NCBI GenBank assembly: GCA_026770705.1
Contig: JANJGN010000034.1
Coordinates: forward strand, 5,146,001 to 5,210,000
From: Isurus oxyrinchus
Taxonomy: Eukaryota
DNA length: 64,000 nucleotides
Direction: 5' to 3'
How positions within the stretch are numbered: the first letter of the stretch is position 1; the number at the start of each line of letters is the position of its first letter. A program made the translations under genes and the position numbers. The notes under the pieces were generated by a model. The model searched no databases, was not told the DNA's origin, and worked only from the letters and a program-made list of their open reading frames with translations. Shown here piece by piece: positions 28,501-63,158 of the stretch.

Positions 28501-28508
28501 AATACTTA

Positions 28509-34320: not shown

Positions 34321-34689
34321 CTGAATTTCTAAATCTCCCATCACCAAAATACATGCTTAATGGTTCGTCTTTGAGCTCCATGCACATGTTATTGAAATGC
34401 CACAATGAGAATATATTGCCGCAGTGCTTTGAATTATTTGTGAAACTGGGCAAGGCTATGAAAATGTAACAGTAATTCTAAGAAATGTTATTGTCGATTC
34501 CATTGCAGGTAAATAAAGTGGTGCTTACAGATCAATGCAGCTGACAGAAAAAAAAATAACAGCATCATTGTCGAGAGTTGATAATATTAACTGTATGCTT
34601 AATGAAGAAGCAAAATTTGATTCAGAAACAGCGAGAGAAAGGAAGAGTTAGAGAGAAAGGTGGGGGGAGAGAGAGAGAGATGCACAGCG

Positions 34690-35460
34690 CTATAAGGGAC
34701 CATAACTTTTAACTTTATACATTAATGATTTACATGAAGGGACTGACGGCATCTTCGCTTAGTTTGCAGATGTTACAAAAATATTTGGAGGGATAGGATT
34801 TATGGAAAAGGCAGCGAGGCTGCAGAAGGATACGGATAGGTTTGGAGAATGGGAAAGAAGTGGGAAATGGAATAAAACGTGGGGAAGCGTGATTTCATGC
34901 ACTTTGGTAGGAAGAATAGGGGCATGGACAATTTTTTAAATGGGGAGAAAATTCTGAAAACGGGAGTGCAAAGGGGCTTGGGAGTCAGAATCCACGATTC
35001 TCTTAAGGTTAACTTGCAGGTTGAGTCGGTAGTTAGGAAAGCAAATGGAATGCTGGCTTTCATTTCGAAAGGACTAGAGTAAAAACAGCCGAGATGTGCT
35101 GATGAGGATTTAAAAGGCTCTGGTCAGAACAAATTTTGAATATTGTGAACAAATTTGGGCCCTGTATGTCAGGAACGATTTGCTGGCCCTGGAGAGGTTC
35201 CAGGGAAGGTTCCTGAGGAACCTTGTGATCCAGAAAGTGGTGGATCTATGTAAGTCATTGCCACAGAAGGCTGTAGAGGCCAGGTCATGGAGTATATTTA
35301 AGATAGAGATAGATAGGTTTTTGATTTGTAAGGGGGTCAAAGATCGTCGGAGAAGGTGGGAGGATGGGGTGGAGAATGTTATCAGCCATGATTGAATGGC
35401 GGAGCAGACTCGATGGGCCGAATGGTATAATTTCTGCTCCTATATTTAATGGTCTTATGG
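34690..35460 (+). mobile_element. 5'-truncated CR1 with ~250-bp internal deletion; same subfamily as 44850-48560
   Basis: INDLHEGT..FADVTKI; ORF 34879..35082; tail tggtcttatgg. Deletion junction at ~35215. Confidence 0.9.
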
Positions 35461-35469
35461 AATCTTTCC

Positions 35470-36290
35470 AGCAACTATCATTATAGAATGGCTTTGCTTC
35501 TTTCCAGGAAATAATTTGTGAGCAAAGTGATTCCGCATTTTGCATTCAGAGCACTCTTTTCACAATGCTGGGCATGTCTTCTATACTTTTCCCTGTGGTC
35601 TCCGCAATATTCACATATTGTACAAAGGTCTTGATATTTCCTCAGCCCACAATATGTTTGTTCTTCTCTTTAGCTGTTTTCATGCGCTTGGAAGGCTTAG
35701 AGTACTCGTCAACATGATTGCCAATCTTCCCAGATTTCCATCCATATTCTCCAGCTGATGATTTTCTTCCTCAGCAATTTAGAGCATTAAATAACTTCCT
35801 TAAGTGTAAAGTTAACTTTTGTCAGCAGGCCTTTGCTCACCACTGTATCTCTCTTTCCTAAAACAATCTCATCATTCATCAGGAAACCTTCAGTTGAACA
35901 AGTTCACAAGAGTCAGTTAGATGTCTCGCTGAAGTAATTTTCAAAATAAAGCATTTAACACATCTTCTGGACTTCTATTGTTGAACACATAACGATCATC
36001 AATTAAAATAGTGGACTGTTCAAGGCAGGTTTTCAAGGCCACCAAATTTTCACAAGACTCATTATTCATTTCTGGTCTACACTGAGGTATACTGTTTAAT
36101 GCAACTCATAACAATTTTCTCACCATTGCTGATAGCAGGGTTCCAAATCATACTTACTTGTGCAGGTTGTTTATATGAAGACGTGAAATTTTCAAGGCTG
36201 TGCCACTTTATCTGGAAGCCTGTTCGATTCAGTCCCACAAAGCCCTTCATGTTTCTATTGCATGTAATGAAACATTCAAATTGGTACTTA
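35470..36290 (-). mobile_element. Ty3/Gypsy LTR-retrotransposon gag relic
   Basis: Minus-strand translation across frameshifts: MKGFVGLNRTGFQIKW..TLLSAM..ILIDDRYVFNNRS..DSCELVQL..DEIVLGKRDTVVSKGLLTKVNFTLKEVI..CEYCG..CPAL*KECSECKMRNHFAHK. These fit Gypsy gag motifs (ERYxFxxRxQ, RDRIVLG, CPAxGKxCxxCxKxNHFA knuckle). Confidence 0.8.
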
Positions 36291-36854
36291 CCCATCTAAC
36301 ATACATGTCCATGTACAAAGTTGCAGACAAACGTTTTAAGCATGGCTTGTTGTTTTCTACGGCAGCTTGATCTCTTGCTGAACTGAGAATATGCTGATTT
36401 TTCACTCGAAACACCTCAAAGTATGTTTCAACTGCTGGAAGAAATGACTTGTGTTTCCAAGCCTGTATACACCAAGGGCAGACTACTATGGAAAGCCAAG
36501 GGCAAAACAAATTGCACAACAAAACTTCTCCAAACATTCAATGCGTGAGGTTATAATGGAGTTATATATTTTGAATGATGATGATGGGGTCAGTGGAACG
36601 CTACTGTTTAGGTGAAAAAGAGGAGAAGCCAAGGTCAGATTAATGGGTGTGCAGTTTAGTGTCCGGGAGCTGCAAGGAACTGCATTTCTGCTGATTATTC
36701 GTTAAGGATCAGATGTGTAAATATTGGAACTTTGGGTTGTCCAACACAACTGTACCATGATGGGAAGTCGTTGGATGAGGTTGTCCGAAAGGTTCAAAGC
36801 TTCAGATAATCAGGCAGAGAACCTTAGCTTTGTCCTATTGGTAAATCAGTTGGA

Positions 36855-37075
36855 ACAACCACACCTGCAAATTCCTCTCCAAGTTACACCTCACCCTGAA
36901 TTGGAACTGTATTGCCTTCCTTTATTGCTGCAACATTAGAATCGCGGGACTCCAATTCTTAAATCACTGTGGGTGTTCCAAAAGCACATGGACGGCAGTT
37001 TTTACAAGAAAGCAACCCATCCCTACTTTCTCAAGTGCAGTTCGCAAATAGCCATTAAATGCTGATGTAGTCGTC
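36855..37075 (+). mobile_element. family B LINE/SINE 3' tail fragment
   Basis: acacctgcaaattcctctccaag..ttctcaagtgcagt..taaatgctgat matches 31245-31440. Confidence 0.7.
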
Positions 37076-37199
37076 CTATTTAAGTGATATATTATATTTA
37101 GAAGGGGCGCCAAGCATTTTGGATGAAGGGGATAAACGATGGGTAGAACAGGAATGTCCAGAAAAAATACCTTGATGAGGGGGCAACTTAAATGTAATT

Positions 37200-39240
37200 A
37201 CAAACATCAAGAGCACATGTCCCAATCAGCAAATTATATCATGTGCAAATTATTGGACAGCTAACAGAAAGCTGTAATGAGGGTCAATTTGATATTTTCC
37301 ATTTTGTAAAACATTTAAAAGTGAATTATTACAGGATTCACTGCTGTGGAATCAACTACTTGCGACCTATATCAGCGTGATTAAAGTGCCCAATGACTGG
37401 TAGTTTTCTGATTATGCCAAAATATAGTTTCTTTGTGATAGTGGCAAAATAAGTGTGTGGGGAAATTAACAGTTAAAGCATAATTTTACAAAATGTTTCC
37501 ACTTTGGCAGGAATAATGCAAAAGTAGTCTTTAAATGAAAGTGAATAAAAATTGTAGGCGACATGTTAAAGAGCTATTTGTGGGTCGTTTTGTTTTGTTA
37601 AAGAGAAGTTAGTATGCAGAAACAGGTGGTGAATGGTACAGATATTGAATGTTGTCTAATGTTGCAGTTGGAATGAAATGTACAAGTATTCTCTGTATTG
37701 GCTAGCATTTCTGAATGGTTTATTGCTGTTTGTGTTTTCCAATCACTTGCCTCGTTACGAATCCAAAGAACATGCAGGGAATCAGAAGAATAGCGAAAAC
37801 AACTAACCTGGTAGAGATAATCAGGATTGATTGTAAGTAAGAAATGGCAAAAAAAAAAAAATGACGCAAGAAGCCTATCGTTCTTGACATTAGCGGTCCT
37901 TCTCGACAAATTATACCAAATAATCAGGGCTTTCCTCAAAAAGCTGCCAGGTCAAACCTTTTCATCTTCCGCCTAATAGCACACTTCGGAGGAATACAAA
38001 TGCAAGAAGAAAACAACTATTATTACTCGATGATAAGAGAATAATGATTTTTTGTCAAGTGTACCCTGATTGTCAGAGGCGTTGACATGGATAATGCATG
38101 AATTGATGCTGATAGACAGTTAACTGCCAAGATTTTGCCAATATTTGTTTATGATATAAATTAGGCAGATTGACGATGATGTCATCGAATGGCTGTGGCT
38201 TATGTTGTATAAGTGAAAAATGCGCATAATCTTTACATGTTTATGCTGTGCACAAAGAACAAGAACCCCTGCAGTACGCTGTTTAGCTTCCAGCACAAGC
38301 AATTGCTCCAGAGTGCGAGCTCTGCTGGCAATCTCAAATTTGTTGTCCACGCAGCTCCTAGTGCTCTGAGCATCACTTAATAAGGAGATAATACCCCCGG
38401 TAACATGGCCACGTTGTCACTTATACAAAAGCCAAAGTTAATTCACTGTGGACAAGATTTCGTATCCTACCATACTTTCCAATCCACTATTCACAAGAGC
38501 CAGTGGGACCAACGCTGATTCGATGACCCTGTGTATTTAAAAAATGAGTGGCAACTTGGTCAACCTAAAGCACGTGGCTACTTAAGATAGTTTTAAGAAC
38601 AGAATTAATGATAATAATAATCACCATTCCAAAAAAAGAATGGAAGAGAAAAGGCGAAAATGTATGCAAGCTAGCCTGTTGTCTCAGGTGTAAATGCTTG
38701 AATGAATTACTAAAGAAGACTTAGAAAACGGTAGCACATTCAGAGTGAGCCTGTATGGTTTTGGAAATTGAAATTATGTTTGCCGTTTATTCGAGTTATT
38801 TTAAGTTTGACAGGCAAGATGCATAAAGTTTGTTTGGATTTCGAAAATGCATTAAAAAACGTGGCACATAGAAGATTAGGATAAATATCATGGTATGATC
38901 TTCTGCTTTCTGTGGCGATGTAGTACCCTGGCCAAAGGATTGGCTCACTAACAGGAAACATAGTCACGAGAAAATGAATCATTTTCACCTTGGAAAACTG
39001 CTCCTACTGGACTGCCGCAGACATGGGTGCTGAGCCCTCATTTATTCTGCACCTATATTCGTGAAATAGATGACGGTACATGCCAAAATAATGACACGGT
39101 TGCTCACAATATGCAGGTATGTAGAAAAACAAGTTGTGAGAAAGATAGAACATTTCTGCAAAGGGATTTAGAGAGAAACAACGAGTGGGAAAAAAACTAG
39201 ATGCAACATAATGTTGGAAGATATGAGGCTATCCAGCCTG
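37200..39240 (+). mobile_element. two very old CR1 RT fragments (~37200-38120, ~38640-39240)
   Basis: Residual motifs such as VCLDFENAL..VAHRRL and gcacatgtcc..ggacagctaacagaaagc. Heavily diverged. Confidence 0.55.
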
Positions 39241-39867
39241 ATAGGGAGAGTTGCAAATCGCTTTCAGGTGCTGAGGACCTCAGCTCTTGAATTACAAATC
39301 ACTAGCTTTTCATCCTCACTGCCTTGTTTCATTCATTTTGGTCACAAAATTGGCAGATTCCATTGCAAGCTTGTGATAAACTGGATGCATGAGAATGTAT
39401 CATATTCCATTACATTCTCATGACATTCTGATTTTAAAACGGTCTGCTGAAATGCCATAGGGTACGCGCTTACTTCAATTGTAGATTATCGATGGGATCA
39501 CCTTCTTATGATACAAAAAATTGTTGTCCCAATAGAAAAAGCTTCCAAAAATTCGAAACTTCCAAACTTTTCTAACATCAGCAAAGTATTGTGTCATCAA
39601 GGAAATCCATGCAAACAATCTCGCAATTGCTATTTAATTTGACATTTTCCCCTCTCTTTATTGCTCCCGTATGCGGTTTGAATTATTCACGTCGATACAA
39701 CTGCTCTTTATTGGCCTTATGCGACTGGTAATTGTCAACCGTTTACCTTCAAAAGATTTAATTTTCATGGCGCCCATATAGTATGGCAGCACATAAGAGA
39801 AAATGAAGGGCGTGATCTATTCAAGATTTGGACGGAATATTTCATTGTTTAAACTTGCACCCTACAG

Positions 39868-39888
39868 AATTGAAGAAAGAGCAACGTG
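39868..39888 (+). CDS. 21-nt phase-1 micro-exon encoding one heptad, (E)LKKEQR
   Basis: cttgcaccctacAG|aattgaagaaagagcaacgtg|GTaaga. Canonical sites, open frame, located in a non-repeat island. Confidence 0.65.
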
Positions 39889-40419
39889 GTAAGAGTGCTA
39901 ACAAAATAATTGTATCCCTGCATTGAACACAATGATCATTCGATTATAGTCATCCTTTGAGTGATTGTCTGCAGTGGCGTTAATATATAAAAAAGTGCGA
40001 ACATCACACGGATTTCACCTAAATATGTTCGCCAATAATGATAAGCTGTAAATCTTACCATCATTCTTAACATTAATAAGACCTTTAAGTCTGAGATTTG
40101 GAACCACCTACTTCTGTGGACCGAGAAATAGAAAGACACAGACGTCGATGGCCATGTAAACATGAGCCGTGTGTCATCCGACAGAAGGAGGGACTAATGA
40201 GAATGGGAGAGAGGGAGCGAGAATGTGAGAGCGAGAGAGAGAGAGAGAGAGGTGGTGGAGATTGCTTGAATATGTGTATGCTGCAAGATTGACATTTGAC
40301 TGCGCGGCACTTAGGTCCAAGCTGAGCATTGAATTTGTGCTTGCTGTTAATATTCGCTGCACTTGTTCATAACACATTTGAAATTATAGGTTGACTTGTG
40401 TTTTTGTTCTGCCCCTCAG

Positions 40420-40440
40420 AGCTCCGCAAGCTCAAATCCG
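40420..40440 (+). CDS. 21-nt phase-1 micro-exon encoding one heptad, (E)LRKLKS
   Basis: ttgacttgtgtttttgttctgcccctcAG|agctccgcaagctcaaatccg|GTaaga. Strong polypyrimidine tract and donor. Confidence 0.7.
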
Positions 40441-41983
40441 GTAAGAAATGGAACCAGAAATTTGCTTTTCCATGCGAAACTCGGAAAGGCTCTATGATAC
40501 ATGAATAGATTTTGAAAGTATTACCCCGTCATGTTCACACGAAGTCTCTGCAAGGTTGCACGTTGAAGAAAAGACAAACCTTCTCCCTTCGATGCCCAGC
40601 ACAGAATACAGGACATTAGTGATGGTTGGTGATAGTGTTAACATGATTCTCCAGCCGGCCTTTGGGTGATTGACTGTAACATCAGTAGACATAGAGCGAA
40701 CATAGACCCAGTTTTGTATATGCAAGGAGAGAAGTACATACACTTTTTACATGATTAGCTTTGGATTACGAGGCAGAAATATACGTATGTTATCTGGCTG
40801 TACAACACAATGACTGGATCATCGATGTACAGAGAGTTGAATTATAAAAAAAAAAAATCTGAACAGAAATAAAGAGGAGGAGGGACTGAAGATAATCAGT
40901 AATCGAAAGACAGAGCAACACTAAATGTATACGTCAAATTAAGGGAAGGGGTGGTGGGAGGGGGCAGGCGGGTGAAAAAGGGAAATGTGTATAAAACGAT
41001 AAAGAACCACGGGTGTACTCCTGGGGAGAGAGGCAGAAAGAGAAAAATGCATAGGCATGCATCAGCTTTGAGAAAACAAACATCCGATAGACAGATACAA
41101 GCATACAAATGTAGAGAGGGAGGAATACAGTTGAACGAAAATTGGGACAACACCAGGGGATAGACAGAGTCAAGCATAGATATACACACATATAGCGTGG
41201 GATACGGAGGCACAGGCACGTCGGGATATAGGTCTAAATTTCAACATCAATGGCGAATAAGACAAAGGGGAAATTCCAACATCATAGATGGTGGTGAGCA
41301 AATAATAACTGTTACACTGATGAATGCTGGAGCTATGGATTTTTTTTGGTCAAAAAAAAATTGTAGTTTATTTTTTGATAAATATGATGAAACTCTGATA
41401 AACTCATATACATAGAGCTTCAGGTTTTCTGTGTGAGGCACATGATTTGTCTCAAGTCTGTACAACTGATTAGTTTCCTGGAAAATCACACAGAAGAAAA
41501 ACTGTGACCAGTCAGCGGTGCAGGCGCTCAGCTACAAAGAAAAACAAACTCTGCAGTAAAAATAATCACAAGTAGAAGCTGGGCCAAAAATAAGCAGTTA
41601 TCAAAACACATTCAAATCACGACTTGACAGAGTCATAACAATATGTCATAACATTGTGATCGAGCCCAGAGTTTCAAAGAAGTTAAGAATGGCCTTACCG
41701 AAAATGCTAGTAGCCCCACAACTCTACATAAAACGTATAAAAGTTGTTGCTATCTAAGGATGTCGTTAGAAAAGGAACATGTATACATTTTTTACGATGG
41801 TGTAACAAGAAAAACGTAAACGTGCATGTCTATCATGCATCACCAATTAGTAAAATATCCCAAGGCACCTGAATGGAATATTAACTAAAGGGGTCTGAAA
41901 AATTTCAAATGCAAATAACTACTAGAACAGATCACTTACAGCTTTTTTGAAGAGTTAGGCTAAAGGAGCATCTTAAAGGAGGA

Positions 41984-42664
41984 TAAAAACAAAAAAAACT
42001 GCGGATGCTGGAAATCCAAAACAAAAACAGAATTACCTGTAAAAACTCAGCAGGTCTGGCAGCATCGGCGGAGAAGAAACGAGTTGACGTTTCGAGTCCT
42101 CATGACCCTTCGACAGAATTTGATTTCGAGTCCAAGAAAGAGTTGAAATATAAGCTGGTTTAAGGTGTGTGTGTGGGGGGCGGAGAGATAGAGAGTTTCT
42201 GTTTCCCCATTTTCCCCTTTTTTCCCCTATAAATTATACAGATTATTCTTTTCCCACCTATTTCCATTATTTTTAAATATTTTAAAATCTTTTATGCTCC
42301 CCCCACCCCCACTAGAGCTGTACCTTGAGTGCCCTATCATCCATTCTTAATTAGCACATTCGTTTAGATAATATCACCAACTTTAACTTTAACACCTATT
42401 TGTTATTTTGTACCATTGTCACTGACATCTTTTGATGATCTGCTTCTATCACTGCTTGTTTGTCTACACAACCACCTCTCTCTCTCTCTCTATCTCTCCG
42501 CCCCCCACACACACACCTTAAACCAGCTTATATTTCAACTCTTTCTTGGACTCGAAATCAAGTTCTGTCGAAGGGTCATGAGGACTCGAAACGTCAACTC
42601 TTTTCTTCTCCGCCGATGCTGCCAGACCTGCTGAGTTTTTACAGGTAATTCTGTTTTTGTTTTT
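41984..42664. mobile_element. young Penelope-like element remnant with inverted pseudo-LTR
   Basis: ~178-bp inverted arms (42018-42195 and 42486-42663) with 2 mismatches seen. Perfect 14-bp TSD atcttaaaggagga at 41970-41983 and 42665-42678. Hammerhead motif in each arm. Confidence 0.85.
42561..42599 (+). ncRNA. minimal type I hammerhead ribozyme motif, variant core
   Basis: agtt-CTGTCGA-a-gggtc(atgag)gactc-GAAA-cGTC-aact: stem I agtt/aact, stem II gggtc/gactc, palindromic acgt stem III. Antisense copy at 42082-42120. Confidence 0.6.
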
Positions 42665-44849
42665 ATCTTAAAGGAGGAATTCGATGTTAATCAGTTAATT
42701 GGTTTAGACTTGATGTCCCCATTTTCTGACCAACCAGATAAAGCCATGGCCGTGAATGTTGGTTTAAATATAGCTGAATTGCTTAAGATACCGGAATCAG
42801 AGGAATCATGATATTTGGAGGATTGATTGGCTCAAAAGGTTGCTGAGAAATACCAGCAAACGGTTTCTGGGCATTTAAAATGCAGAAGGGGTGTTACGTT
42901 CATTGATTTCACAATACAGGCACAAAATATAGGCCAGCAAGCACAAGCATCATGAGGGAACTGTGTTGTAGTAAGTTAGGATACAGTTGGGAGATAAGTG
43001 AATAACCTCAACTTTATGGAAGAATAGCAAGGAGACAGCGAATGATTGCATTGGAATATTCAGGATTAGAAATAACGATATGGGTGAAGGTTGTGCAGCC
43101 GAAGGTCTAAGGCAAGGTCAGGATTAGGCGATGCTGGGGTGGTAGAAATAGATCATTGGCATGGCAGCAGGTTTTGGCCAGTCCAGACATGATATCAAGA
43201 ATGGCTAAATCTTGCTTCAAATTTAGGCCTTTTTTGAGGTGAAGAATGCATCGCTAAGCAATGCAAATTGTCACCCTAGCAAAGATATTGCTTTTGATCT
43301 TCTAAATATTTTTGAAAGGATGTTCTCCTTTTGCAATTCTGGGTTTTGCACAGATATTATTTCAATGTACTGGCAGTGATTCATTTGCAGAGTTTGGATA
43401 TTTTCAGTGTAGGCCGCAATCATGTTGCTGTTTTTATTTTTTGCATTATACACTTTAAGTGCAGTACATAGGTCAGTAGCATCCGAAATGCCTGTGTGCA
43501 ACTTTTGGGAAAGCCAGATCGAAAGTGCAACAGATGAATGAACAGGTGATCCTTTAGCTATCAGTCTATAGTAAAGAAAGGACCCAGGTAAATTATGTTT
43601 CAGCTCCAACAGGATGAGTATCTTTTGCATAAATATGACTGATGTATATTAGGAATGCAACAATGTAAGGAGTACGAGGAATGATGGTTTGTATTTGTCG
43701 TTGTGACAAAATGAATAATTTATATTATTTATATAATAAATTAGGCACCCTAATTGATTCTGACGCAGTAAAGACGTCTCTTTCTGTGCTTTTCTTCCCT
43801 TGTGGAAGACATAAACGTTATAATTTGAGTTTACAGGCATGCCAACAATGCCTCTCAACTGCTGCATGAAGCTTAAAGGAGCAGTAGGGACAGGAAGTAG
43901 TAGTGACAGTGGAATTTATATGCTCCACTTTGATCAGGAATAAATGTTGCCACAGGTAAAGGATTGGTAAGCAGGCGAGATCGAGTTACCTGAAGTTGAC
44001 AAAAATGTGGTGACAAGAAAGCAGGTGACGATTATGATTTTAAATTAGTGGGTTAGTTTCATTTTGCAGAAGAGGTAGAAGCGAAGTAGATATTATTTTA
44101 CGAGAAGAAATGTGATAAATTTTAAATCAGCAGAACGATTGTGAATGTTTTCCTGCAGCACAAATTGGATACCTCATCTAAAATGAGGGCCAGTTGATAG
44201 TGTGCGAAATTCTCTTTTGTTATCATACTTGTTAACTTCCGGAGGCTCTCGATAAATCATGGACTCGATTTTTAAATTACAAGCGATGTTCCCATATTCC
44301 CAAATGGCCTGCCTTACAATTCCTAAACATGGGTCCAACCCAATCACTCTCAGGATAAATATTCGCTCCCATTTTGGCCTGCTGCATACCCTGAATATTA
44401 ACCATTGCTTTTTGGTGGATGATAACTTTAGGGGTGCTGCACCTAATTCTGCAATTCGCTCTTCGAAAATATTTCTGCCTCGTTCCTCATTTAAGTGAAG
44501 GAATAACAATTCTCTTTGAACAAGGTTTTGATCAAACTCTGATTTGCAATTCTTTATTTCCCATTGCCGAATTCAGTTTGTTAATTACCTTGCCAAATGA
44601 GCAAGAAAAATTCACCTCAATAACGCTATTTGAGTGCACTTTGTTGCTGGGAAATCCAGTGGCTACTAATCGATTGACAAATGCCATAGGGAGGATTGAA
44701 AATAAGTTTAAGGGGGGCATAATTTCATTAGAGATACAATACATAAAGTCAATTCAGGCGGAATGAATGTGTTTAACCATTCAATTATATTAGACCGGAG
44801 TATATTGTTCTATTAACTCCACTTTTTAAGCAGGATTGCGATTCCAGCA

Positions 44850-47800
44850 AAGAATGTTGCCTGCCCGGTACCAGGGTGATGGACATCTCTGACCGGCTTG
44901 AAAGGATATTGGAGAGGGACGGGGAGGATCCATTTGTTGTGGTCCACGGCAGGACAAATAACATAGGTAAGACTCGGAACGATGACCTGTTTAGGGATTA
45001 TGAGGAAGTAAGAACTAAATTAACGAACAGGTCTTCAAGGGTTACAATCTCTAGATGACTACCCGAGCCACGTGCTAATTAGCATAGGGACATGAGAATA
45101 AGGGAAGTAAGCACGTGGCTAAAGGATTGGTGCATGAAAGAGGGGTTCCATTTCGTGGGGCACTGGCATCAGTATTGTAACAGGAGGGATATGTTCTGTT
45201 AGGACGGTCTCTAACTGAACGAATCTGGGACCACTGTTCTAGTGAAAAGTATAAATAGGGTAGTTAACTTTAAACTAGATAGTCGGGGGAGGGGGGGGGG
45301 GGGGGTGGGGGGCAGTAAAACTCCAATAAGTATGACTAATGGGAAATAAAGTAGCAGGTTAGCCTGAGGAGGGGTCGGGGATTGGGGGGGTTAGGATTCA
45401 ACTTCATAGAAAATTATGAAAAACTGCAAAGGAAGGAGAGCCCAGGAGAGGCTATTAAAGTCACCAGAACGCAACATAGGGCAGCATGTTTGGAAAGGGC
45501 TAGGAAACTAACTACAGGCACATTAGATATAGGGACGACAATGAGGAAGTTGGCGGGAAATACAGGACTGAATGTAAACAAAAAACAATATCTGGAAAAA
45601 CTCAGCAGGTCTTGCAGCATCTATGGAATGGAGCAAAATTAACGTTTCGAGTGCGCATGACTCTTCAGCAGGACTGAACGTGTTGTATCTAAATGCAGGC
45701 TGAGACAAGGTGAGGTAAATGAGCTTGTGGTGCAGCTTGAAATTGGCAGGTTTTATGCGTTAGGCATTACAGAGACAAGGTTGCAAAGGGATCAGGACTG
45801 TGAGTTAAATATCTGAGGATATACATTCTATCGAAAAGATAGCCAGGTAGACAGAGGGACTATTTTTACTTTGCTACTAAGAACTTCAATTAAATCGACA
45901 GTAAGAAATGGTGTAGGGTCAGGTGATATAGAATCTGTTTTGAGTACAGTGGAGGAACCACCAAGTTAAAAAAGAAAACATAATGGGAGTTATGTACAGG
46001 CCCCCAAATAGTAGTCAGGATGTGGGGCGCAAAATACATTAGGGGATAGAAAAGGTGTGTAAGAAAGGCAAGGTTACATATCATGGCGAATTTCAATATG
46101 CATGTGGACTGGGAAAGTCAGGTTGGTATTGGATCCCAAGAAAAGTTACTTGTGGATTGTCTTAGGGATTTCTTTGGGAGCAGATTGTGGTGGAGCCCAC
46201 TAGGGAAGAGTCAATTCTAGGTTTGGCGATGTGTAATGAGGCACATTTGATAAGGGGGCTTAGGGTGAAGGAACCCTAGCAGGAAGTTACAATTTTATGT
46301 TAGATTTCACCATGCAATTTGAGGGGGAAAAGCTGGAATCAGATGTAAAGGTATTATTGTTGAATAATGGCAATTAGGAGGCTTGAGGCAGAAGCTGGCC
46401 AGAATTGACTCGGAGATGAGCCTAGCAGTAAAGACAGTGGAACAGCAATGGCAGGAGTTTCTGGCAGTAATTTCGGTGCCACAGCAAAAATTCTTCCCCA
46501 GGACGATGAAGCATACGAAAGGGAACACGAGGCAACCATGGCAAACAAGGTAAGTCAGGGACAACATAAAACTAAAGAGAAAGCATACAATATAGCAAAG
46601 AACAGTGGGAAACCAGGGGACTTGGAAGCCTACAAAGACCAACAGAGGACAATAAAAAAAAAAGGATTATGGAGTGAGAAGATAAAACATGAGGGTAACC
46701 TAGCTAGCAATATAAAAGAAACACGCCAGATTAGATTTTTAGATATATTAAGGGAAAGACAGAGGCAGAAATTTACATTTGGACGCTGCAAGATGACGTT
46801 GGAGAGTAGTAGTCGTGGGGAACAACGTAATGGCGGAGGAACTGAATAAGTACATTGCTTCAGTCTTCACAGTGGAAGACATGAGTGACATCCCCACAGT
46901 TCAAAAGAGTCGGGGGATAGAGGTGAGTTTGGTGGCCATTATCAAGGAGAAGTTGCTAGGAAAACTGAAAGGTCTGAAGGTGGATAAACGACCTGGACCA
47001 GATGGATTACACGCCAGAGTTCTGAAGGAGATAAATGAAGAGTTAGTGGAGGGGTTAGTGGTAATATTGCAGGAATCACCGGAGGCTGGCGGATCCCAGG
47101 GAACTGGAAAACGGTTAATGTAACCCCCCTGTTTAAGAAGGGAGTTCAGCAAAAGACGGGAAATTACAGGCCGGTTAGCTTGACCTCGGCCATTGGTAAG
47201 ATGTTATTGTCCATTATTAAGGATGAGATTTCAGAATATTTGGAAGCGCATGGTAAATTAGGGCAGTCAACATAGTTTCATCAAGGGGAGGTCATGCCTG
47301 CAAATCTGTTAGAATTCTTTGAGGAGGTAACGAGTAGGTTATACAAAGGAGAGCCAATGGATGCCATCTACTTGGACTTCGAGAAGGCCTTTGACAAGGT
47401 GTCGCACACGAGGCTGCTTAATATGTTAAGAACCATGGTGTTATAGGCAAGGTACTGAGATTTATAGAAGATTGGCTCTCTGGCAGGAGGCAGAGAGTGG
47501 GGATAAGTGGATACTTCTCAGGATGGAAGCCAGTGACTAGTGGTGTTCTGCAGGGGTCAGTAATGGGACTACAACTTTTCTCTTTACACATTAATGATCT
47601 AGATGAAGGAACCGAGGGCATTCTGGCTGAATTTGCAGATTATACAAAAATGGTTGGAAGGACAGGTAGCATTGAGGAGGCAGGGTGGCTGCAGAGGAAT
47701 ATGGACAGGCGAGCAGAATTGGCTAAGAAATGGCAGATGGAATACACGTGGGGATGTGTGACGTCATGCAAGTTGGTAAGAAGAATAGAGGCATAGACTG

Positions 47801-48560
47801 TTTTCTAAATGTAGAGATAATTCATAAATATGGTGTGCAAAGGGAATTGGGACTCCTAGTCGAGGATTCTCTTATGGTTAAGTTGCAGGTTGAGTCGGTA
47901 GTTTCGAAGGCAAATGCAATGTTGGCATTTATTTCGAGAGGACTATAATATGAAAAATGAGATGTGCTCCTGAGCACTTATAAGGCTCTGGTCAGATCAC
48001 AACTGGACTATTATGAGCAATTCTGGGCCCCGTATCTCAGGAAGGATGTGCTGGCCCTGGAGAAGGACCAGAGGAGGTTCAGGAGAATGATCCCAGGACT
48101 GAAAGGCTTAGCATTTGCAGAACGTTTGAGGACTCTGGGTATATACTCTATGCAGTTTAAGAGGATGAGGGGGGATCTGATTGAAACTTACAGGATTCTG
48201 AAAGGCCTGGGTACAGTGGAAGTGGGCAAGATATTTCCATTGTTTGGAGAGACTAGGAACTGAGGGCACAGCCTCAGAGTAAAGGGAAGGCTTTTTAGAA
48301 CAGAAATGGGGAGAAACCTCTTTAGCCAGGGAGTGGTGAATCTGTGGAATTTATTGCCACACAAGGCTGCTGAGGCCATGTAAGTCAGTGCATATAATTC
48401 CGAGATAGGTAGGATCTTGATTCTTAAGGGGAACAAAGCTTCGGCGAAGAAGGCGGGAGAATGGGGTTAAGAAACTCATCAACCATGATTGAATGGCCGT
48501 GCAGACTAAATGAGCCAAATGGCCTCATAACTAATCCAATGTCTTATGGTCTCATGGTCT
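44850..48560 (+). mobile_element. CR1 LINE from ORF1 esterase through ORF2 to 3' tail, inactivated
   Basis: CCLPGTRVMDISDRLERILERDGEDPFVVVHGRTNNIGK (ORF 44876), LNKYIASVFTVED..PGPDGLHARVLKE (46815), SGVLQGSVMG..INDLDEG..EFADYTK (47497), tail cttatggtctcatggtct. Confidence 0.95.
45576..45668. mobile_element. Penelope-like single-arm fragment nested in CR1
   Basis: ggaaaaactcagcaggtcttgcagcat..aacgtttcgagt..atgactcttc. TSD caggactgaa(t/c)gt at 45563-45575 and 45669-45681. Confidence 0.75.
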
Positions 48561-48589
48561 TTCTTATGTACATACCACCGCTGCTCCAC

Positions 48590-50660
48590 CAAATCATGTC
48601 TTATTTGTTGATCAACCTTGATTGTATTGGACTGATAACCACCCAGGATCTGGGAATTACAAAGGCTAACGAATTTCTGAGGAAAGGAAATCTTCCTAAG
48701 CTCCACATTAAACTGGAGACATCTCATTTGAAAGCGTGCTCCCGTGTTTCATTTATGCCTAGGGGAATTATACAAATCGCATCTACCATGTCAAATCCTG
48801 AAATGAATGTTTTAATAAGATAATCTTCCATTCTTCTGAACCTCAATGAATGCATGCAAAAACATCTAAACGTTGTAATTTTCATGAGACAATACGACAA
48901 TTTCATCTCAGTTGAATTGGCCTTGTAAATCTGCTTCGTGCTCCTTCTACATCAGGGATATTCAACCTGTAGTTAGGGAAATCAAAGACTGTGGATTCAA
49001 AAAAGTGATGTTGAGTTGTAGTGTTACAGGCTTGCCTGCATGCAGTAAAACTGGTTGATTGCAGATATTTTTTTTTAAATAACTGTAACTGTGCTGAATG
49101 CTTTCTTTGAACTCTTCACCCACGATTCCTTTGACAAATAGATTCATGCAATCTATATGAAGATCAAAATTGCCCCCACTTATTGCATTTTATTTATTTC
49201 CAGCAGCGAATTTGCCCTGATTTGTCCTCTGCCCTGCAGTTTAACCAATGTTATAGTACCTATTAACCATACCAAACAATGACATTTCTACCCTTTGTTT
49301 TTTTTAAGTTTCATTTAAATCCAAGCAGATTCGACATCCTTAGATTTTTCGTAAGGTTGATAGTACATTACTGACTGGTCTCATATTTGATTGACATCTC
49401 TACAAACCCGTTTCCCTTTTTCAGTGTCCTTTCGAAATGTTAACTACCCTTGTGTATGCAGTTCGCAATCGTGCGCAGCTTTTCAGCACGGCTCTATTTG
49501 CCTACAAAAACGTACCTAGGTATTTGTATATGTGCTACGGCTATTTCCATTTTATTGAAATGCAGCATGCATTTAGGTAAACAGGCTCTAATTATATTGA
49601 CTTTACATCATTTCAATGTTCCTACATTTTTTTTGCCAGTGTACTGTTATGCTTAAATATTCCCTGCCTTCCAATTGCCCTCTGGTTACTATTCCTTGTA
49701 TACAGCACTTTTGCCTTGTCGCTTGTCATTATCTCCGTAGACATCATTCTTGCCCCTAATATTTCGCTTAAACCCTTCTTTAGTGCCATGGCTATACAAT
49801 GGTTTCATGCTCATTCATGTGATGGCTGCCTATTTGTATAAATCCTCCTTTCCCCAGTCCTGATGTCATCGTCAAGCTTCTGGAAACCCATTTATCCCAC
49901 ATCAGTTTTTGAACAATAGTTCATCCATAACGTTTTTCCCTTCCCTTTTGAAGTCTGCTAATGGTTCATGTGATCACCACGGTCCATTCCTTCTCTGGTT
50001 CCACTCGTATTTGTTTTTTTTTTTTGTTTTCCATTTAACCTCTACATGCTCACATTCCCACTGAAGAATCTGGATCTTCGACCGACATATAGCAGCTCGG
50101 CCAATGTTGGCCACGCAAACTGCATCCATCCATTTCAAATCTGTGGCCCACTTCAGTCCCAAGGAGATAAAATTTACCTTGTAAACGGAAAGGGAGCACC
50201 TCCTCTGTCACACACGCTTTTGGCCGCATGAGTGCAGTATCAATCACAATGATTGTAATGTCTGTATGATAAATATGGTGAAATGTCAACTCCCAAGCCA
50301 AACAATACACTTTTCGGAGGTCTGGCGGGTCATACTTCCTTGCAACTCCTCCTAAGGTCCACATAGGATGCACGAGTATTGAAGCAAATGAGTCCTATTA
50401 CGTTGATTTCCACCTTCTGGACAAACGCACCTGCCTCACTGGGAGGCACAGTCTCCTTTCGCAGAGGACAGATAAAATCTGATGTATCAACCCAGAAAGA
50501 TGTAGCGGCTTCACAGAAAAAAATGCCAGAGAAATTGCCCGCCCATGCCCCTCAACTCCTCTGTTGGTGCATCGCAGTTTCTGTTTCTGAAGATCCAGCG
50601 AATGAACTCTGACACAAATTTTGTCGAGCTGCGGCAATAACGGCAGATGTTGCTGTCCTG
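48590..50660 (-). mobile_element. old CR1 with large internal deletion
   Basis: CR1 3' UTR-like sequence at 48590-49050, EN start near 49500-49600, and an ORF1-like leucine-zipper remnant (ORF 50398..50637 QLDKICVRVHSLD). Confidence 0.55.
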
Positions 50661-50944
50661 GGTCGTATTAGTAAAAAAAATGAAGATTCTGGATGGTGTG
50701 GCACAACACGTTATCTCTCCTGCAAGCCCATTGTAGTTTACTTAAATCATTACTTTTGAAGATTAGAAAGAGACAATTGGGAAAACAAAATATAGTTATG
50801 CCAACTAATTTAATGTGCTAACTTAGCAGTTCAATAAATACCTCTAACTGCCATTTATGAATTGAACTTAGTGGCACCGTTCAGAGGCAAGATAAATAAA
50901 TAAATGCACAAACACATGCATGCCCAAAAGGCTGGTAGATTGAT

Positions 50945-51065
50945 GACAGAAAGGTAGATAGATAGTTAGTTCAATAGATAAATAGTTTGAGAGTGATACA
51001 AAGATACAGAGATGGATAGATATATGGATTGATACATTGATAGATAGATAGTGCTAATATTGATA
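50945..51065. repeat. degenerate (GATA)n microsatellite
   Basis: Directly visible. Confidence 0.8.
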
Positions 51066-51519
51066 GTGATATTTTAGGCAATTTATTGTCACTCAAATTT
51101 GCAATGACTTATACATGAGCGGAACAATAAGAAAAAATGTCTAAACGTAATGTTTAAGGGGCTATTTAAATATCAGCGTTGGTTGAAGAAGTTTATGGAT
51201 GGGCATTTGACACCATTGCAGCACGGCCGATGTATTGGAGGCTTGATCGACATTGAGGTGTTATAAGGGGTAGATTAGCAAAGACATGAAATAATTAGAA
51301 AAGACAAAAAAAGTCTTTCATTCCAAACTTGACGGACCAGAATCCATTGAATTACAATGCCTGATATCTGAAATGATAGTCGGCAGAAATTAGTATGAAC
51401 ACACATTAATTGTATATAAGATTTATATATTTGAGTTTATTGTTGAGGAAAACATGGACAAAATGTTCATGTTCCATGAGGCATGTAGCATTGACGTGTA
51501 CAGGGCCAGGTTTTTTGCT

Positions 51520-52210
51520 TTTTGGAGGAGCTGCACTCATCCAGGCAAACAGACAGCATTCCACTACCCTCCGTAACTGTGCTTTCTAAACGTTGGTCTG
51601 TTCTTAAGGATTAATAGGCTGGGCTACAAGCTAAATAGTGATCATAATTTGCTTTGTTCTTACATCCTCAGTATTTTTATGCTTGGTCTGATTCATTTTC
51701 TTGTCAAAGGCAACCACGGGGTTTATTAGTTGCAAATTCAGCAATAGTGATGTTGAGGTGAGCTGGCTAGATTCTCTTATTAGTGGTTATTGAGAGGCAC
51801 TTAAGCAAAAGGATTGTGCTATCCGCTTATCAGCCCAAGCCGTTATGTTGTCTACACTTTGCTACTTATAGTCAAGGATTGGTTCAGTAACTGAGGAGTT
51901 GTGAATTTTGGCAAACATTGTGCTATCCTAAGTGAAGATGTGGGAGTAGGTATAATCATTTCCGACTGTGACTGTTAAATGCCGGGAATATCATTGATTA
52001 AAGAGCTGAATGTGTTAACGCCAAGAACGCTATCTGGGGAACAGCAAGGAAAATGTTATCCTAAAATCCGGAAGTGAGATGAGCGACCTACAAAAACCAA
52101 AATGATTGTCATTTTGCCTGGTAGGACTGCAAAAACTGTAGAGTTTTCATCTGTGTCCCATTGGCTTCCCTTTTAATTGGCCGCCTATGTGCCATATACC
52201 TTTCAAATTT
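51520..52210 (-). mobile_element. old family B LINE RT fragment
   Basis: ggagctgcactcatccaggcaa..cattcc and cattgattaaagagctgaa resemble 13360-13400 and the reverse complement of 30600-30640. Confidence 0.6.
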
Positions 52211-52871
52211 CGCCCTGAAATCAACGGCAGACAGTCCCCAGGGCACTTTCGTTTTCAATATTGGATCCAAGTATTTATTGATGTCAACAAGGGAGGGACA
52301 CTGGCATTACCTAAACTTAGCATCTTTGCGAAACCCATACGTGCATTATCGATAAAAAAATATATATTTAACATGAGCTGGCAATTAAAACAATTCAATA
52401 TATGCCACGAATTAAAATCATGCATATATTTTGGATGTATTCATTGGAAGGCAGCAGCAAAAGAGCAGGGTTATCAAAATAACAGGATAGCTTTCAAACA
52501 TCCTGCACAGAAACGATGAACAAAAAATAATTTGCCTTTGATGTAATATTTTATATTGAACGACGTAGACGGGGCATACAAGAGCAAATGATCCATCAAT
52601 GTCATGATGGAATAGGTATGAGGTGATTATTAATCATGCAAACCAATTAAAAACTACCACATCACTAGATTTTCAGCGAAAAATTAACTTTAACTTATTG
52701 TGTCATCAAAGTTTGTTTAATGCAGTTTCTTATGTGAGAATATATATGCTGATGATAACAAACACAATTGTGCATAAATGAAGCCAATACGAGATATTAC
52801 ATTGCATAAGCTAGGCATTTAAAACGTTAGTTGTGTCATCCTCTGCAATTAATACTTGTTTTAAACTGCAG

Positions 52872-52907
52872 ACCTTGCCGACTGTCAGAACAGTTTAAAG
52901 CAAAAGG
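52872..52907 (+). CDS. 36-nt phase-1 exon, (D)LADCQNSLKQK
   Basis: cttgttttaaactgcAG|accttgccgactgtcagaacagtttaaagcaaaagg|GTgaga. Leu at positions 2 and 9 keeps the heptad register. Confidence 0.6.
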
Positions 52908-53856
52908 GTGAGAATTTATGTAATCTTTGATTTCAACATCTGCAGCTTATGATATTGTGATTAATGGTAACAGAGAAAGAAAACAATGGGTTTTTGAATA
53001 GCTTTGAGCGTGTATTGAGCGTGTATCCCAAGTTTGTTCAGTCAGATTACATTGTGCAAACTTCAACTGGCTTGTAAAGCAATGGAAAACTTCCATTATG
53101 TATATATAACTAATGATAATAACACCACTAGCCTTAGAAGCAGGACTATTAATCCAGTACAATAAACATTTGGATAAAAAGCTAAAACGGAACGAAATAT
53201 GGCATAAACTTAGAAAGCACAGAAACACTCAGTTCACAAAAGGGAAAAAAGATAAATGTACCAGCACTTTCCTAGTTAAAACAGTGTTCAGGCATTTCAG
53301 TGTGATAAAATAACGGATACAGTGAAATGGCCGGTGCTGTGGAATGGGGATCACAATTGCAGAGTTTTTCGGGGAATGAACGCTGACAGCTGATCTAGAG
53401 CGCTCTTGTTGTTTCTACCGCTCTGGGATCTGGGCACAGACAACACATTCTGCTGAAAGGTTTCACAACATAGGTAATGGATTATTTGCAAACAAACTGA
53501 ACGTTGAAATAGGGACTAGGAATTAATAAGGTGTAATCGGTATTTGAAATATGACAATGTTCAATGCAGTTCAATTATTTAATTTAAATTTAGAAGGCCT
53601 TACTGCTGATGCGTGGAACAACATAAAGATTACAATTAAGAAACTATAGTATATAATTGTTTTAAATGTTAGTGAAGCTAATAGCGATATTATTAAAGAA
53701 CAGAAAATCGAAAACACATTCGCAAAACAGTAAAAGTAAACGAGAGGAGTTTTTTTGGTTTCTAAAGTTGCTCTGTTTGTTTGATCATTTAGACATTTAA
53801 TACAGGCAATAAAATACTTTTTTCATTTTTTTTTACTCTATCTTCCATAATGGCAG

Positions 53857-53862
53857 AGGAAG
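53857..53862 (+). CDS. candidate 6-nt phase-1 micro-exon, (E)E
   Basis: Long polypyrimidine tract tttcattttttttt actctatcttccataatggcAG|aggaag|GTacgt. 36+6=42 nt completes two heptads. Confidence 0.4.
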
Positions 53863-54539
53863 GTACGTGTTTAAGATTCTGAACATCCAATGGAGCTGGC
53901 GAAGCATTGTTTGATGTGCTTTCCTTTGAAGCCTGAGTCACCCGTTGTAAGTGATATTGCCCTCGATAATCCTTGCTTTAGCAGAGGGCTTTAGGTGGAT
54001 TCAAAGAGCCAAAATGCATCAAAGGAAACATCACTAAACATAACATTTAAGAGACTCGTAGAAGAAGATATTAGAACTAGCGACAATGATAGTAATAATA
54101 ATAAATTAATAATAATCATAAATGTGTGTGAACATTCAGGATTAAAATCAGGGAATGTGATACCGTCGTAGAGGGTGCAGCAGATGATCTTAAAACTTTG
54201 AACCGTGGAAAGTGAATACAAAATGCTAAGTAGTGCACAGACCAAAATCGGCGTATACCAAGTGGAGAGAATTGAATGAGAGAAGTGCCATGAGAGCGCT
54301 AAAAATGCAGAGTGGACTGAATCCATTAGTACATTTGCTTTCAACGATTAGAATTATAAATTTAGAGTGCAGCAAACCACAATGCAACATAGCTGCACTA
54401 CCGTAGAGGCCTATATGTGACTAGTTATTACAGAAACTAACCTCGTCCATTTGAAAATTCCCAGACATTGCAAGAAAACATTGAAGGAGAGAGAAAAAAT
54501 AAGAATTAGGGATGAAGAGGAACGGCATATAAAAACCTA

Positions 54540-57500
54540 GGCAGATAGGCGATGTGAGCACGACGAGGCTATTTAGACCTTCGCGCCTCCTCTACTTTTC
54601 AAATATATCATCAATGATCCCATTAAGGCCTCAACTTCATGTTGGAGCCTACACATCCCCACGCTCTACTCCAACACCCTGTGACCCTTGATTCCCTTGT
54701 GTAGCAAAAATAATGTTATTTTTTTACCCTCCTTTGAATAAATTTTGTGATGTTCCCTCCGCTGCTTTCTGCGGAAGGGAAATTAGCATTTTATCGCCCT
54801 TTCACAGAGAAAAAAAAACAAATCTACTAATTTCCATCTTAATTTTGCTATACTCGTGTCCCCCGGTTCTAACTTTTCAAAAAATAGAAACATTCGACTA
54901 GCATATTACTATAAAACTTCCCGAGGATATTCTATCCTTCAATGAGACCAAGCCTCAGAGGTCTAAACACCAATCTGCTTAAGACCACACTGTTCAATTT
55001 ATTCTTCTTAAGAAAAGCCGATGATCCCAATAACGCATCGAATGCACTTTCCTGATCTGCTTCGAAAGAATTATATATTTGATTACAAATAACGAAATCA
55101 AACTGAATACAGACATCGAAATGTGTTCTCACTAAGGCTCGATACACACGGCAGAAAACTTCCATAACGTTATATTCCATTACACTTTCAAAGGTTGTCA
55201 AAATTAGATTTTTTTCCTTACCAATCACTTGCTGTACCTGCATAATTATCTTTTGTCATATAAATACTAGTACATTCAGCTTCTTTTGTACCTCTGAGTT
55301 CTCCATTCTATCTCAGTTTGCATAACATACCCCTTTTTCTATTCTTCCAGCCAAAGTGGACAAGTTCACATTATCGCACAACGTTTACCACCTTCTATTT
55401 TTGTCCATTCACTTAACCTATCTACACACTTTTGTAAACTGTATACCTCCTCTTGACAAAGTCATTCCCTGCCCATCTTGGTGTACTCTGCAAATTTAAC
55501 TGCCATACATTTCGCTTTTTCATCCAACTGATTGATGTTGATTACAAATAATTAAGGTCCCATCACTGATCCAATTGGCACAACACTTATTACAGTCTAC
55601 TAAACTGAAAACTATCCACATATTTCTACTTACTGCTTCTGTTATCTAACCAATTCTTTGCAGATGCTAACATCTTACCTTCTAGACAACTACATCTTAT
55701 CTTATGTAGAGACATTTGATGTGGCATGTTATCAGCTGAATACTGGAACGCTAAGATCACCACATGTAGGGTTACCACTTTATCCAGCGTGCGACTTAAA
55801 TTCTTGACAAAATGAATAAATTAGTTTAGCGCAATTTTCCTTACCTGAGCCTATGTTGGCTCGGCCTCATAATGTATTTATCCTGCAATAACTTCCTTAT
55901 TCATGGTTTCTTGAAATGTTCCTCTGACTGCTGCTAGACCATCTCGAAACTTCTTTCCTGCTTTCAGGCCCCATTCATTCTAGAGATGAGTGTTGCATTA
56001 GCCATTTTCCAATACACTAATATATCTCATTCATTTTGGAAGATCATATCTAACGAATATAACATCTCTGACAGCTTTTTCAATTGAGGCCCTACGGTGC
56101 ATGACTAGTGGCCGTGGGGTCTTTTCAATATTTACTTGTGGATGTTATCCCGCATGTATTTCTCTAGCGATGGTGATTGTTTTAATTATCTCCCTCCCGT
56201 TATCGTCTTGGTGTTCAAGCATCGTTAGATAGTTTTCTCTTTCTTCTACACTGAAGACAGACACAAAGCGCCTGCTCAACGCTCCTGCATTCCCGTTGTT
56301 TTAATTTTCACTGCGCAGACACAATTCATAGAGGGCCTACACTAGGTCTAGTTAATCTCTTCCTACATAGGCATTTGTAAAAACTCATAATATTTTGTTA
56401 TATGTAACCAGCTAGTTTTCTCTCACATGATTCTCTATCCGCTTTATAGTTTTAGTCTGTCCTTGCTAATTCTTCAAAATTCCCCAATCTTTTCACTTAA
56501 TACTATTATTTGTCGATTTATAAAGCATTTATTTCAATTTGATCGTATCCAATTCAAAGAGTTGTGTTTTCTTTCTTACAGAGCTATATCTGTGACGTTT
56601 TATATATCGCCTGAAATATCTGCCATTGCATCTAAACCCATGTAACGTAATTTCTTAACTGACATGTGCAGGATCTTCTTCAATTCCATTGTACTTAGGT
56701 TTTCTTTGTAATGTTCAAAGAGCTAGTCTTAGTCATTCATACCAACCAGGCAAGTTCAATCTTCAAATTATGTTATGTTATACTATTCTGCAGTATTTTA
56801 GGTAATCTGTCACCCAGAGGATCCTATACTACGAGCTCATTGATTAATGCTGTTCGATTGTTCATTACCAGGCCCAGGAAGGCGTCCTCCCTGTCTGTTG
56901 ATCAAAATTACTGCTCTCAGAAATTGTCAGCAATACATTCCATGTCCTTATTTGCCGGGCTAGATTAGCCAGTCTAATTAACCAATCGACATATAGATTC
57001 ATCTGGTACCATTCATAAAAGCACTCTGAATTTATTTCTCTATACCATATTCTGCTGCCTATCAACTGTTGCCAGGCCTAGAAATTACTCAAGAAAGTGA
57101 CCTGTTGTCTATTATCTTTCCTTTTGGAACCTAACTGGTTCCAAACTCTTGCTTATTGAATCAAAAGCCTTCTTCCATTAATGTGCAAATAGCATGATTA
57201 ATTAGAAAGCTACTGTACATTTTTTTGTCTCCTAGCTCCCTACATTTTGGCAATTTTAAACATCCATCAGTAGCCAGTTCGCAACCATGGTCACGTTGCT
57301 TCCATGTCACTGTAACAGGTATTGGATATAAATCTTTAGCTCTAAATGTGAAATCAATTAATTCATTTTGTTGAGAGTACTCAGATAAATAGACTACAAC
57401 TATGCCTTTTTTGCATAATGCTGGCGCACCCAAAAGTTTTCACTCTCTGTCCCTTCCTGCCACACATTGATTACCATTATCGAAGAGCTGTTATGTTCCC

Positions 57501-58500
57501 TTACCTCCTTGCTTCACTTTGACTTACTACATTCCTTTCCCATGCTCTATTCTCCACACTATTTGGTTTTAAGCCCTTGTATAAAGCCATAGATTCAAGA
57601 AGAGCCAAGACACTGGACCAAGCGAAAGTTTACGTGAAATTTCTCTCAACGGTGCAGCTCTGACTTCCTCCAGTATTGGTGCCAGTACGCAATGAATTAA
57701 AAAACAATTCATCTCACACCAGTCTTTTGGCAAGATTTTAACCTCTCTATTCTTATTCACACTACACCAATTTAGTCGTTTCACAGGTAATATTTCATAT
57801 ACTATTCCCTTTGAACTTCTGTTTTTCTAATTTTATTTAACCCTAGCTGTCCATAATCGATACACAGAACGTTTAACCAACTCATTTATATGCCTTTGGC
57901 ATCCAGGTGAACCACGGATCTGAATACACCCACTACCACTGGAGTTTCCTGTCCAGCCTCCTGCATTAACTCTGGCACCACATAGGCAGCAAATGGGTTT
58001 GGAATCACGCTTTGGACTGCAGACTACTGTGTCCATTGATCTCACCGTACTATCCATCAACACCGCGACAATTACTGTTAATGGTTCCAACTTGAATGCC
58101 CTTTTGAACGATGGTGCATTGGCCACTTTTCCCTTCTTTCTTGCGCTCTCGCTTGAAATGTGGAGGTTTGAAGAGTCTCCAATCTGTAGTATATTTGCAA
58201 AGGCTGAGGTTGATGCAATCATTTCCTCTGGGCTCACATACCAGCCTCCTTTCCAGCCATGACTGCTGAGTAAATCAGAATACCCTACACTATAGATGTG
58301 TCTGTGCCGAGGAATAAAATAGAGAGGTAACTTTGCTCTCTTCGGATGCATTGTATTGTTGGCAGCTCGGCCTCCAGACAATGTCTGTGAGTGGAACTCT
58401 TTCAATCCGCAGACTCTTCCGGGAGATGTGATCACCCTTGACCACGCACTGACAGGCGCTGGCACTTACTGCGGTCATAACACATCACCTGCCCTGACAT
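54540..58500 (-). mobile_element. old near full-length CR1 LINE
   Basis: ORF 57833..58465 contains esterase-like VAVLMDSTVRSMDTVVCSPKRDSKPICCLCGARV. ORF 54932..55243 contains QVQQVIGK..YRALVRTHFDVCIQF. Confidence 0.85.
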
Positions 58501-63093: not shown

Positions 63094-63158
63094 TCATTAA
63101 TGGAAAACAAATCATACCAGGTGGCAGCGAGATCAGCACAGATATTGACGTAAAATAA
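63094..63158 (+). CDS. candidate phase-1 terminal coding exon (V)INGKQIIPGGSEISTDIDVK*
   Basis: Very strong acceptor ttcttttattttattttttAG. The frame stays open after the TAA for 22 more codons, to 63227. Confidence 0.4.

Follow-up and report, generated by a model that had tools for sequence, protein, structure and literature searches.

Coiled coils built from small exons, or followed by a C-terminal B30.2 domain, are familiar from three groups of proteins. Butyrophilins consist of immunoglobulin (Ig) domains of the IgV and IgC types, a transmembrane segment, few heptads, and a B30.2 domain (PMC8813856, PMC4046983, PMC12841164); chicken BG proteins consist of an IgV domain and a transmembrane segment followed by many seven-residue exons that form a coiled coil, with no B30.2 domain, and their small exons expand and contract by duplication and are used alternatively (PMC4046983); and TRIM proteins carry RING and B-box modules (PMC8813856). 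The DNA considered here is a window of 64,000 nucleotides (nt) from the 4.98-Gb genome of the shark Isurus oxyrinchus, corresponding to positions 5,146,001-5,210,000 of contig JANJGN010000034.1 (C34). It had been predicted to hold four micro-exons, all on the plus strand, of a large butyrophilin- or BG-like, or other, coiled-coil gene spread over more than 40 kb. The predicted gene, gene B, is far larger, covering ∼1.55 Mb (C34 ∼4.848-6.396 Mb) and ending in an intact B30.2/SPRY exon of 173 amino acids (aa). With moderate confidence, its array of ∼290 candidate micro-exons and the B30.2 exon are read as one gene encoding a predicted soluble, self-pairing coiled-coil rod of ∼3,000 residues with the B30.2 domain at its tip.

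The array is marked by a strong bias of strand and phase. A scan of 1.388 of the 1.548 Mb of gene B returned 292 phase-1 micro-exon candidates on the plus strand versus 15 on the minus strand, together holding 2,797 codons. These comprise 121 candidates of 27 nt, 107 of 36 nt, 30 of 21 nt, 15 of 15 nt, and 19 of other sizes, and they are arranged in blocks by class; the 21-nt exons, of the kind that occurs in runs in BG proteins, are a minority. A cruder scan of 1.064 Mb around the window gave 105 plus-strand but only eight minus-strand exons with lengths of 21, 27, or 36 nt; 103 of these 105 strong exons are free of stops in phase 1, compared with 48 and 47 in the other two phases. Across the whole genome, the 27-nt pattern has six matches, all on the plus strand of C34 between 4.37 and 6.65 Mb, and its control has none. 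The B30.2 exon lies 1.19 Mb downstream of the window, with a Trp-bearing 27-nt exon just before it, and no other B30.2 match was found between 4.817 and 6.396 Mb among the 150 of 283 candidates that were scored.

The encoded peptides follow a heptad pattern. Hydrophobic residues fall at positions 2, 5, 9, and 12 of the 36-nt exons, position 4 of the 27-nt exons, and positions 2 and 5 of the 21-nt exons, and a 36-nt plus a 27-nt exon make up three heptads. The heptad register over 111 close exon pairs was 0.609, against a null of 0.474 ± 0.019, with 0/1000 random pairings as good. The 21-nt peptides fit the first seven residues of the 36-nt class (+1.4 bits, versus -3.5 bits for the 27-nt class) and thus, by their sequence, fit shortened 36-nt exons of the same family, so convergence may account for their resemblance to BG exons.

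Within the window, the four exons of the original prediction were recovered as proposed, with canonical AG/GT ends, a G as last base, a phase-1 frame without stops, and Leu at every seventh residue when read in order. The strict motif YAG-N21-G/GTRAG with an open frame and a hydrophobic second residue occurs four times on the plus strand and never on the minus strand, compared with a mean of 0.08 in 150 dinucleotide shuffles of the window, none of which (0/150) reached four. When 36-nt exons were added, six matches were observed versus 0.23 in shuffled sequence, again with 0/150 shuffles reaching that number. Splice sites were scored with approximate frequencies first and then with a self-trained matrix, and a splice-plus-coding model, scored in bits, had as its training set 115 exons that lie elsewhere than in the window; its minus-strand background per 64 kb was 0.12 at ≥12 bits, 0.9 at ≥10 bits, and 1.74 at ≥8 bits. 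The 6-nt motif, by comparison, occurs three times in the window, a number reached by 9/150 shuffles, and over 1.06 Mb it occurs eight times on the plus strand versus seven on the minus strand. The two 21-nt exons and the 36-nt exon of the original prediction are therefore far above chance, whereas the 6-nt exon alone is not significant. This last exon is plausible because 36 plus 6 nt restores the heptad register; the junctions of all four are predicted from genomic sequence. The accepted and weaker candidates of the window are collected in the table.

Table. Features of the 64,000-nt window (window numbering; scores in bits from the splice-plus-coding model)
Position	Strand	Feature	Score or evidence
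1..64000	+	Whole window, inside gene B (C34 ∼4,848,400-6,396,340), within its 21-nt-exon block	Single unit predicted because duplicate gene C is collinear
13694..13714	+	21-nt phase-1 exon, one heptad; additional to the original prediction	16.5 (held-out); cassette homologous to other live 21-nt exons
15925..15945	+	21-nt phase-1 exon, tandem duplicate of 13694 (76% over 511 nt); additional to the original prediction	12.4
20848..20868	+	Weak 21-nt cassette copy, possibly decaying	4.7; AG/GT kept in homologous gene C copies
39868..39888	+	21-nt phase-1 exon; first exon of the original prediction	11.8; zero listed differences in run X4
40420..40440	+	21-nt phase-1 exon; second exon of the original prediction	18.2; zero listed differences in runs X1 and X4
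52872..52907	+	36-nt phase-1 exon, main 12-residue class, Cys at residue 5; third exon of the original prediction	15.8
53857..53862	+	6-nt phase-1 candidate, uncertain, register restored after the 36-nt exon; fourth exon of the original prediction	9.4; chance level
60962..60997	+	36-nt phase-1 exon, weak acceptor; additional to the original prediction	14.3
62557..62592	+	36-nt phase-1 exon; additional to the original prediction	17.3
63040..63045	+	Weak 6-nt candidate after a 36-nt exon, uncertain	6.4

Contigs of a related organism span both 21-nt exons at 39868 and 40420 in run X4 and only the second in run X1. All of the listed differences (28/28) fall in the intron between them (39963-40393), and none fall in the two exons or their splice signals; the probability of seeing no difference there is about 0.07 over the 42 bases of the exons alone and 0.002 when the splice signals are added. 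Three further window candidates, at 11216 (36 nt), 45773 (27 nt, within a repeat), and 13184 (3 nt), were not accepted.

Selection on the array can be read from a duplicate. C34 carries five intact 173-aa B30.2 exons, at 4,816,507, 6,395,819, and 7,496,442 on the plus strand and near 3.474 and 2.709 Mb on the minus strand, and gene C (C34:6,433,690-7,496,953) is an old duplicate of gene B with ∼80% intron identity and internal deletions. It keeps the order of gene B, with the first exon, a 21-nt block, a 27/36-nt block, and a terminal B30.2 exon 92% identical to that of gene B, and it lacks the 111-nt exon of gene B and two large blocks; it also carries a 75-nt exon whose in-frame ATG lies at 6,457,734. 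Among 171 gene B exons tried, 34 pairs could be aligned with the examined part of gene C (including two nested alternatives), with no indels and no stops; AG was kept in 33/34 and GT in 32/34, over intronic dinucleotide backgrounds of 63% and 58%, respectively. Exon identity was 90.7%, against 81.8% for introns, and synonymous and nonsynonymous differences per site (pS 0.18, pN 0.07) gave a dN/dS of 0.36, which at the sequence level is purifying selection on gene B exons. Similarity between gene B and a further member of the cluster, gene A, is confined to exons. That the array consists of splice-like motifs arisen by chance, or is a dead pseudogene, is very improbable: the 6-nt exon at chance level and dead cassette copies near the window fit it, but the strand and phase bias, the dN/dS value, the intact B30.2 exons, and the conservation in the related organism all run counter to it. 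Between 5.06 and 5.33 Mb there are 36 copies of the 21-nt cassette, of which 28 were called live and eight were not, most of the eight having no AG or GT; copies of the latter kind were seen at L010:3164, L011:4839, L012:2650, L015:1303, L018:8498, L018:9903, and L019:5121.

The terminal exon of gene B is recognized as Pfam SPRY with an expectation value (E) of 1.8e-13, and its best PDB sequence match is the B30.2 domain of BTN3A1 (E 4e-20). In a midpoint-rooted tree of 59 rows, a 100/100 branch set seven B30.2 domains from this genome and eight chondrichthyan models apart from 11 Ig-labelled, 31 TRIM, and two other rows. Labels were assigned by motif; among eight Ig rows checked by name, seven were named BTN or ERMAP, and the tree left out isoform duplicates, TRIMs longer than 560 aa, and most unlabelled matches. 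The B30.2 sequences were thereby shown to form a separate chondrichthyan clade, apart from butyrophilins plus TRIMs. The closest database proteins are all from cartilaginous fishes, and the clade takes in chimaera, skate, ray, and sharks. Its database models are 129-460 aa long, had only Pfam SPRY/PRY in the six that were scanned, and in the closest ones are otherwise helical rods. RefSeq models of 175-460 aa in this clade (XP_055510696, XP_038668997, XP_042191566, XP_069775384, XP_038672306, and XP_060706632) carry the names TRIM69-like, TRIM39-like, TRIM58, A33-like, and BTN3A1-like, which imply domains that they lack; rod segments of the skate model match the last exons of gene B, for which at least ∼2,800 aa are predicted. 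The predicted fold of a skate model shows long helices and a B30.2 sandwich, with a predicted local distance difference test (pLDDT) score of 73 and structure matches to TRIM7/TRIM11 and BTN3A1; a homodimer prediction for the skate relative scored 0.01 and was used neither way.

Were gene B a member of the butyrophilin or BG/MOG families, it would have exons for IgV/IgC domains and a transmembrane segment ahead of a heptad tail in the cytoplasm; such membership would agree with its phase-1 21-nt exons, the 27-nt exon before the B30.2 exon, and the BTN3A1 match. As in BTN and BTNL genes, a heptad region in small exons would be followed by a C-terminal B30.2/PRY-SPRY domain, the linkage of the latter to the window exons being predicted here. 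The searches for the remaining domains speak so clearly against such membership that it is given little credence. In 1.924 Mb, which takes in the whole 5′ end of gene B back to the stop of the previous gene, tblastn with eight Ig-bearing BTN-type queries matched B30.2 exons only, with no positive Ig control within the searched DNA, and four TRIM queries for RING and B-box modules likewise matched B30.2 exons only. An Ig motif scan of 4,032 open reading frames gave one spurious match, a genome-wide V-set search had its sole C34 match at 13.07 Mb (150 of 3,319 candidates scored), and 1.064 Mb contained no convincing hydrophobic exon for a transmembrane segment. The intervals between gene starts and their neighbors, ∼23-31 kb, were all covered. 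Of the flanking exons that the original prediction called for checking, PRY-SPRY was found downstream and IgV/IgC and transmembrane exons were not found upstream.

By its sequence, gene B is thus BTN/BG-like in design and not a butyrophilin, because exons for Ig, transmembrane, or RING segments were not found; the earlier expectation of coding micro-exons in a large heptad gene held, and the assignment to BTN, BG, or MOG was not supported, given a B30.2 domain outside BTN plus TRIM at 100/100. It differs from butyrophilins in having hundreds of heptads rather than few, and its B30.2 domain falls in a clade apart from shark, bony-fish, and amphibian butyrophilins. With chicken BG it shares many small exons that would form a coiled coil, a repertoire of such exons that expands and contracts through duplication, and a predicted alternative use of small exons, but unlike BG and MOG it has a B30.2 exon and is dominated by 27- and 36-nt exons. 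With TRIMs it shares a coiled coil and a C-terminal B30.2 domain, and the model of a skate relative matches the B30.2 domains of TRIM7/TRIM11, yet the rod is far longer and built of micro-exons, and gene B lies outside the TRIM group in the tree. A type II coiled-coil locus of the tetherin/PLVAP kind was also tried and rejected: PV-1 matched C12, weakly C29, and nothing on C34 in a strict first look that sets a floor.

In the favored reading, a single transcript would cover the whole array, and translation would start at the in-frame ATG found in the second exon of genes A, B, and C, giving a cytosolic protein. The product would form a parallel, oligomerizing coiled coil roughly 0.4 micrometre long, as coiled coils rise 0.15 nm per residue, and by analogy with the coiled coils of TRIMs and the tails of butyrophilins, the rod could serve as a long spacer or scaffold carrying a ligand-binding B30.2 head. 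Every exon is phase 1-1 with a length divisible by three, so the gain, loss, or skipping of exons leaves the frame intact, and rod length would accordingly evolve through cassette duplication and decay. Isoforms of the clade models differ by blocks of six or nine residues, as expected from micro-exon skipping.

Several observations weigh against this reading. We infer the connectivity of exons over 1.55 Mb as one transcript from genomic sequence, and the exon counts cover all but 160 kb of gene B. One of the 34 gene B/C pairs has lost both splice sites in gene C, and the four exons of the original prediction have no live counterpart in the examined part of gene C, so the selection test covers the gene and not these exons. 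Other points concern the N-terminus. No conserved candidate for a start-codon exon was found upstream in genes A-D, and the 111-nt second exon opens with nine codons, mostly for hydrophobic residues, which genes A and B both conserve and which lie upstream of the first ATG of gene A; skate and bamboo-shark models also begin hydrophobic, which would fit a putative signal exon that has escaped view, and Cys is concentrated at the heptad core (40% at residue 5 of 36-nt exons), a placement more usual in secreted rods. These features leave a lesser but appreciable chance that the same gene encodes a secreted or type II membrane-anchored protein, in which a small first coding exon would supply the signal or anchor and core Cys residues would form interchain disulfides in an extracellular rod. 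The A/B changes in the hydrophobic start of the 111-nt exon, mostly at third positions, agree with that possibility; a search with this exon gave no protein match and no Pfam family. Against it, no conserved ATG or signal exon was found upstream in genes A-D, and the 111-nt exon is absent from gene C, whose exons are nonetheless under selection. Narcine and catshark models begin hydrophilic, sequons of the N-glycosylation type are as frequent as expected (six versus 6.2), and the hydrophobic starts of the other predicted models may be intron read-in.

The array could also be real and yet divided among several shorter transcripts, through internal promoters or early polyadenylation, with the full rod rarely or never made. 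The short database models and the arrangement of exon classes in blocks are in keeping with this, but no internal first or terminal exon was recognized, gene C keeps the same first exon, blocks, and B30.2 exon in order, and short models would be expected wherever annotation misses micro-exons; such a division is considered unlikely. No clade member longer than 358 aa was found in the best 120 of 440 matches when 325-2,000 aa were searched. A 1,579-aa Atlas cluster that has SPRY as well as a coiled-coil family (score 0.84) could be a long model of the same design and is taken as a lead only. Contigs of four putative RNA runs, guessed to be such, gave matches to repeats only, with none over the B30.2 exon of gene B, and were counted neither way.

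On a wider view, the evidence is evenly balanced on whether these genes represent an undescribed chondrichthyan-wide family, with genes of 0.5-1.5 Mb and up to ∼300 micro-exons, Cys-studded rods of ∼3,000 residues (∼0.4 micrometre), a distinct B30.2 sensor tip, and rod length set by cassette birth and death and by exon skipping. Such genes would be among the most exon-rich of vertebrates, with databases holding only short, misnamed fragments. No published description was found in the literature searches, in which none of the titles or abstract openings names the family, though supplementary tables on shark BTN and TRIM genes (e.g., PMC12841164) could list its members. If expressed as predicted, they would constitute a multi-megabase cluster (about 2.7-7.5 Mb of C34) in cartilaginous fishes, annotated as short "TRIM-like" models. 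They would also be an extreme test case for splicing over hundreds of 15-36-nt exons and would show clearly how a protein grows as micro-exon cassettes duplicate and decay. Cartilaginous fishes, the oldest living jawed vertebrates to have adaptive immunity, would then possess a third B30.2 lineage in addition to the TRIM and butyrophilin ones.

Elsewhere in the cluster, the starts of genes A (3.998 Mb), B (4.848 Mb), and C (6.454 Mb) are marked by a conserved 5′ block with a donor at its end, and in A and B the 111-nt exon comes next. In gene B, this conserved first exon ends at C34:4,848,606. Genes D (minus strand) and A (plus strand) are head-to-head, with starts ∼23 kb apart (C34 3.975-3.998 Mb, L116-L118). 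A promoter-like conserved block with ATTGG and AAAGTCA motifs, which we take to be CCAAT-box and nuclear-receptor-like, precedes the first donor (L043:2370-2610, L118:8380-8630, and L147:3770-4050). Two further B30.2 exons of the same clade, on C21 at 89.72 and 91.35 Mb (L132, L133), lie inside a large SPRY cluster with more than 130 SPRY matches at 82-118 Mb, which suggests a link between the C34 genes and the C21 region. At ∼5.88-6.17 Mb of gene B (L177-L179, L200-L209), a block of ∼25-27 kb recurs in tandem with several exons, including the 15-nt class; coverage of the 260-kb interval from 5.91 to 6.17 Mb was 100 kb. Introns in the window contain broken LINE-type reverse-transcriptase fragments, recognized by eye, at 32169-34328 (minus strand) and 46409-48263 (plus strand), and the catshark model XP_038668997 has a LINE-derived N-terminal stretch matching one window fragment. 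Window positions 28509-28990 hold a tandem repeat of two 239-nt copies.

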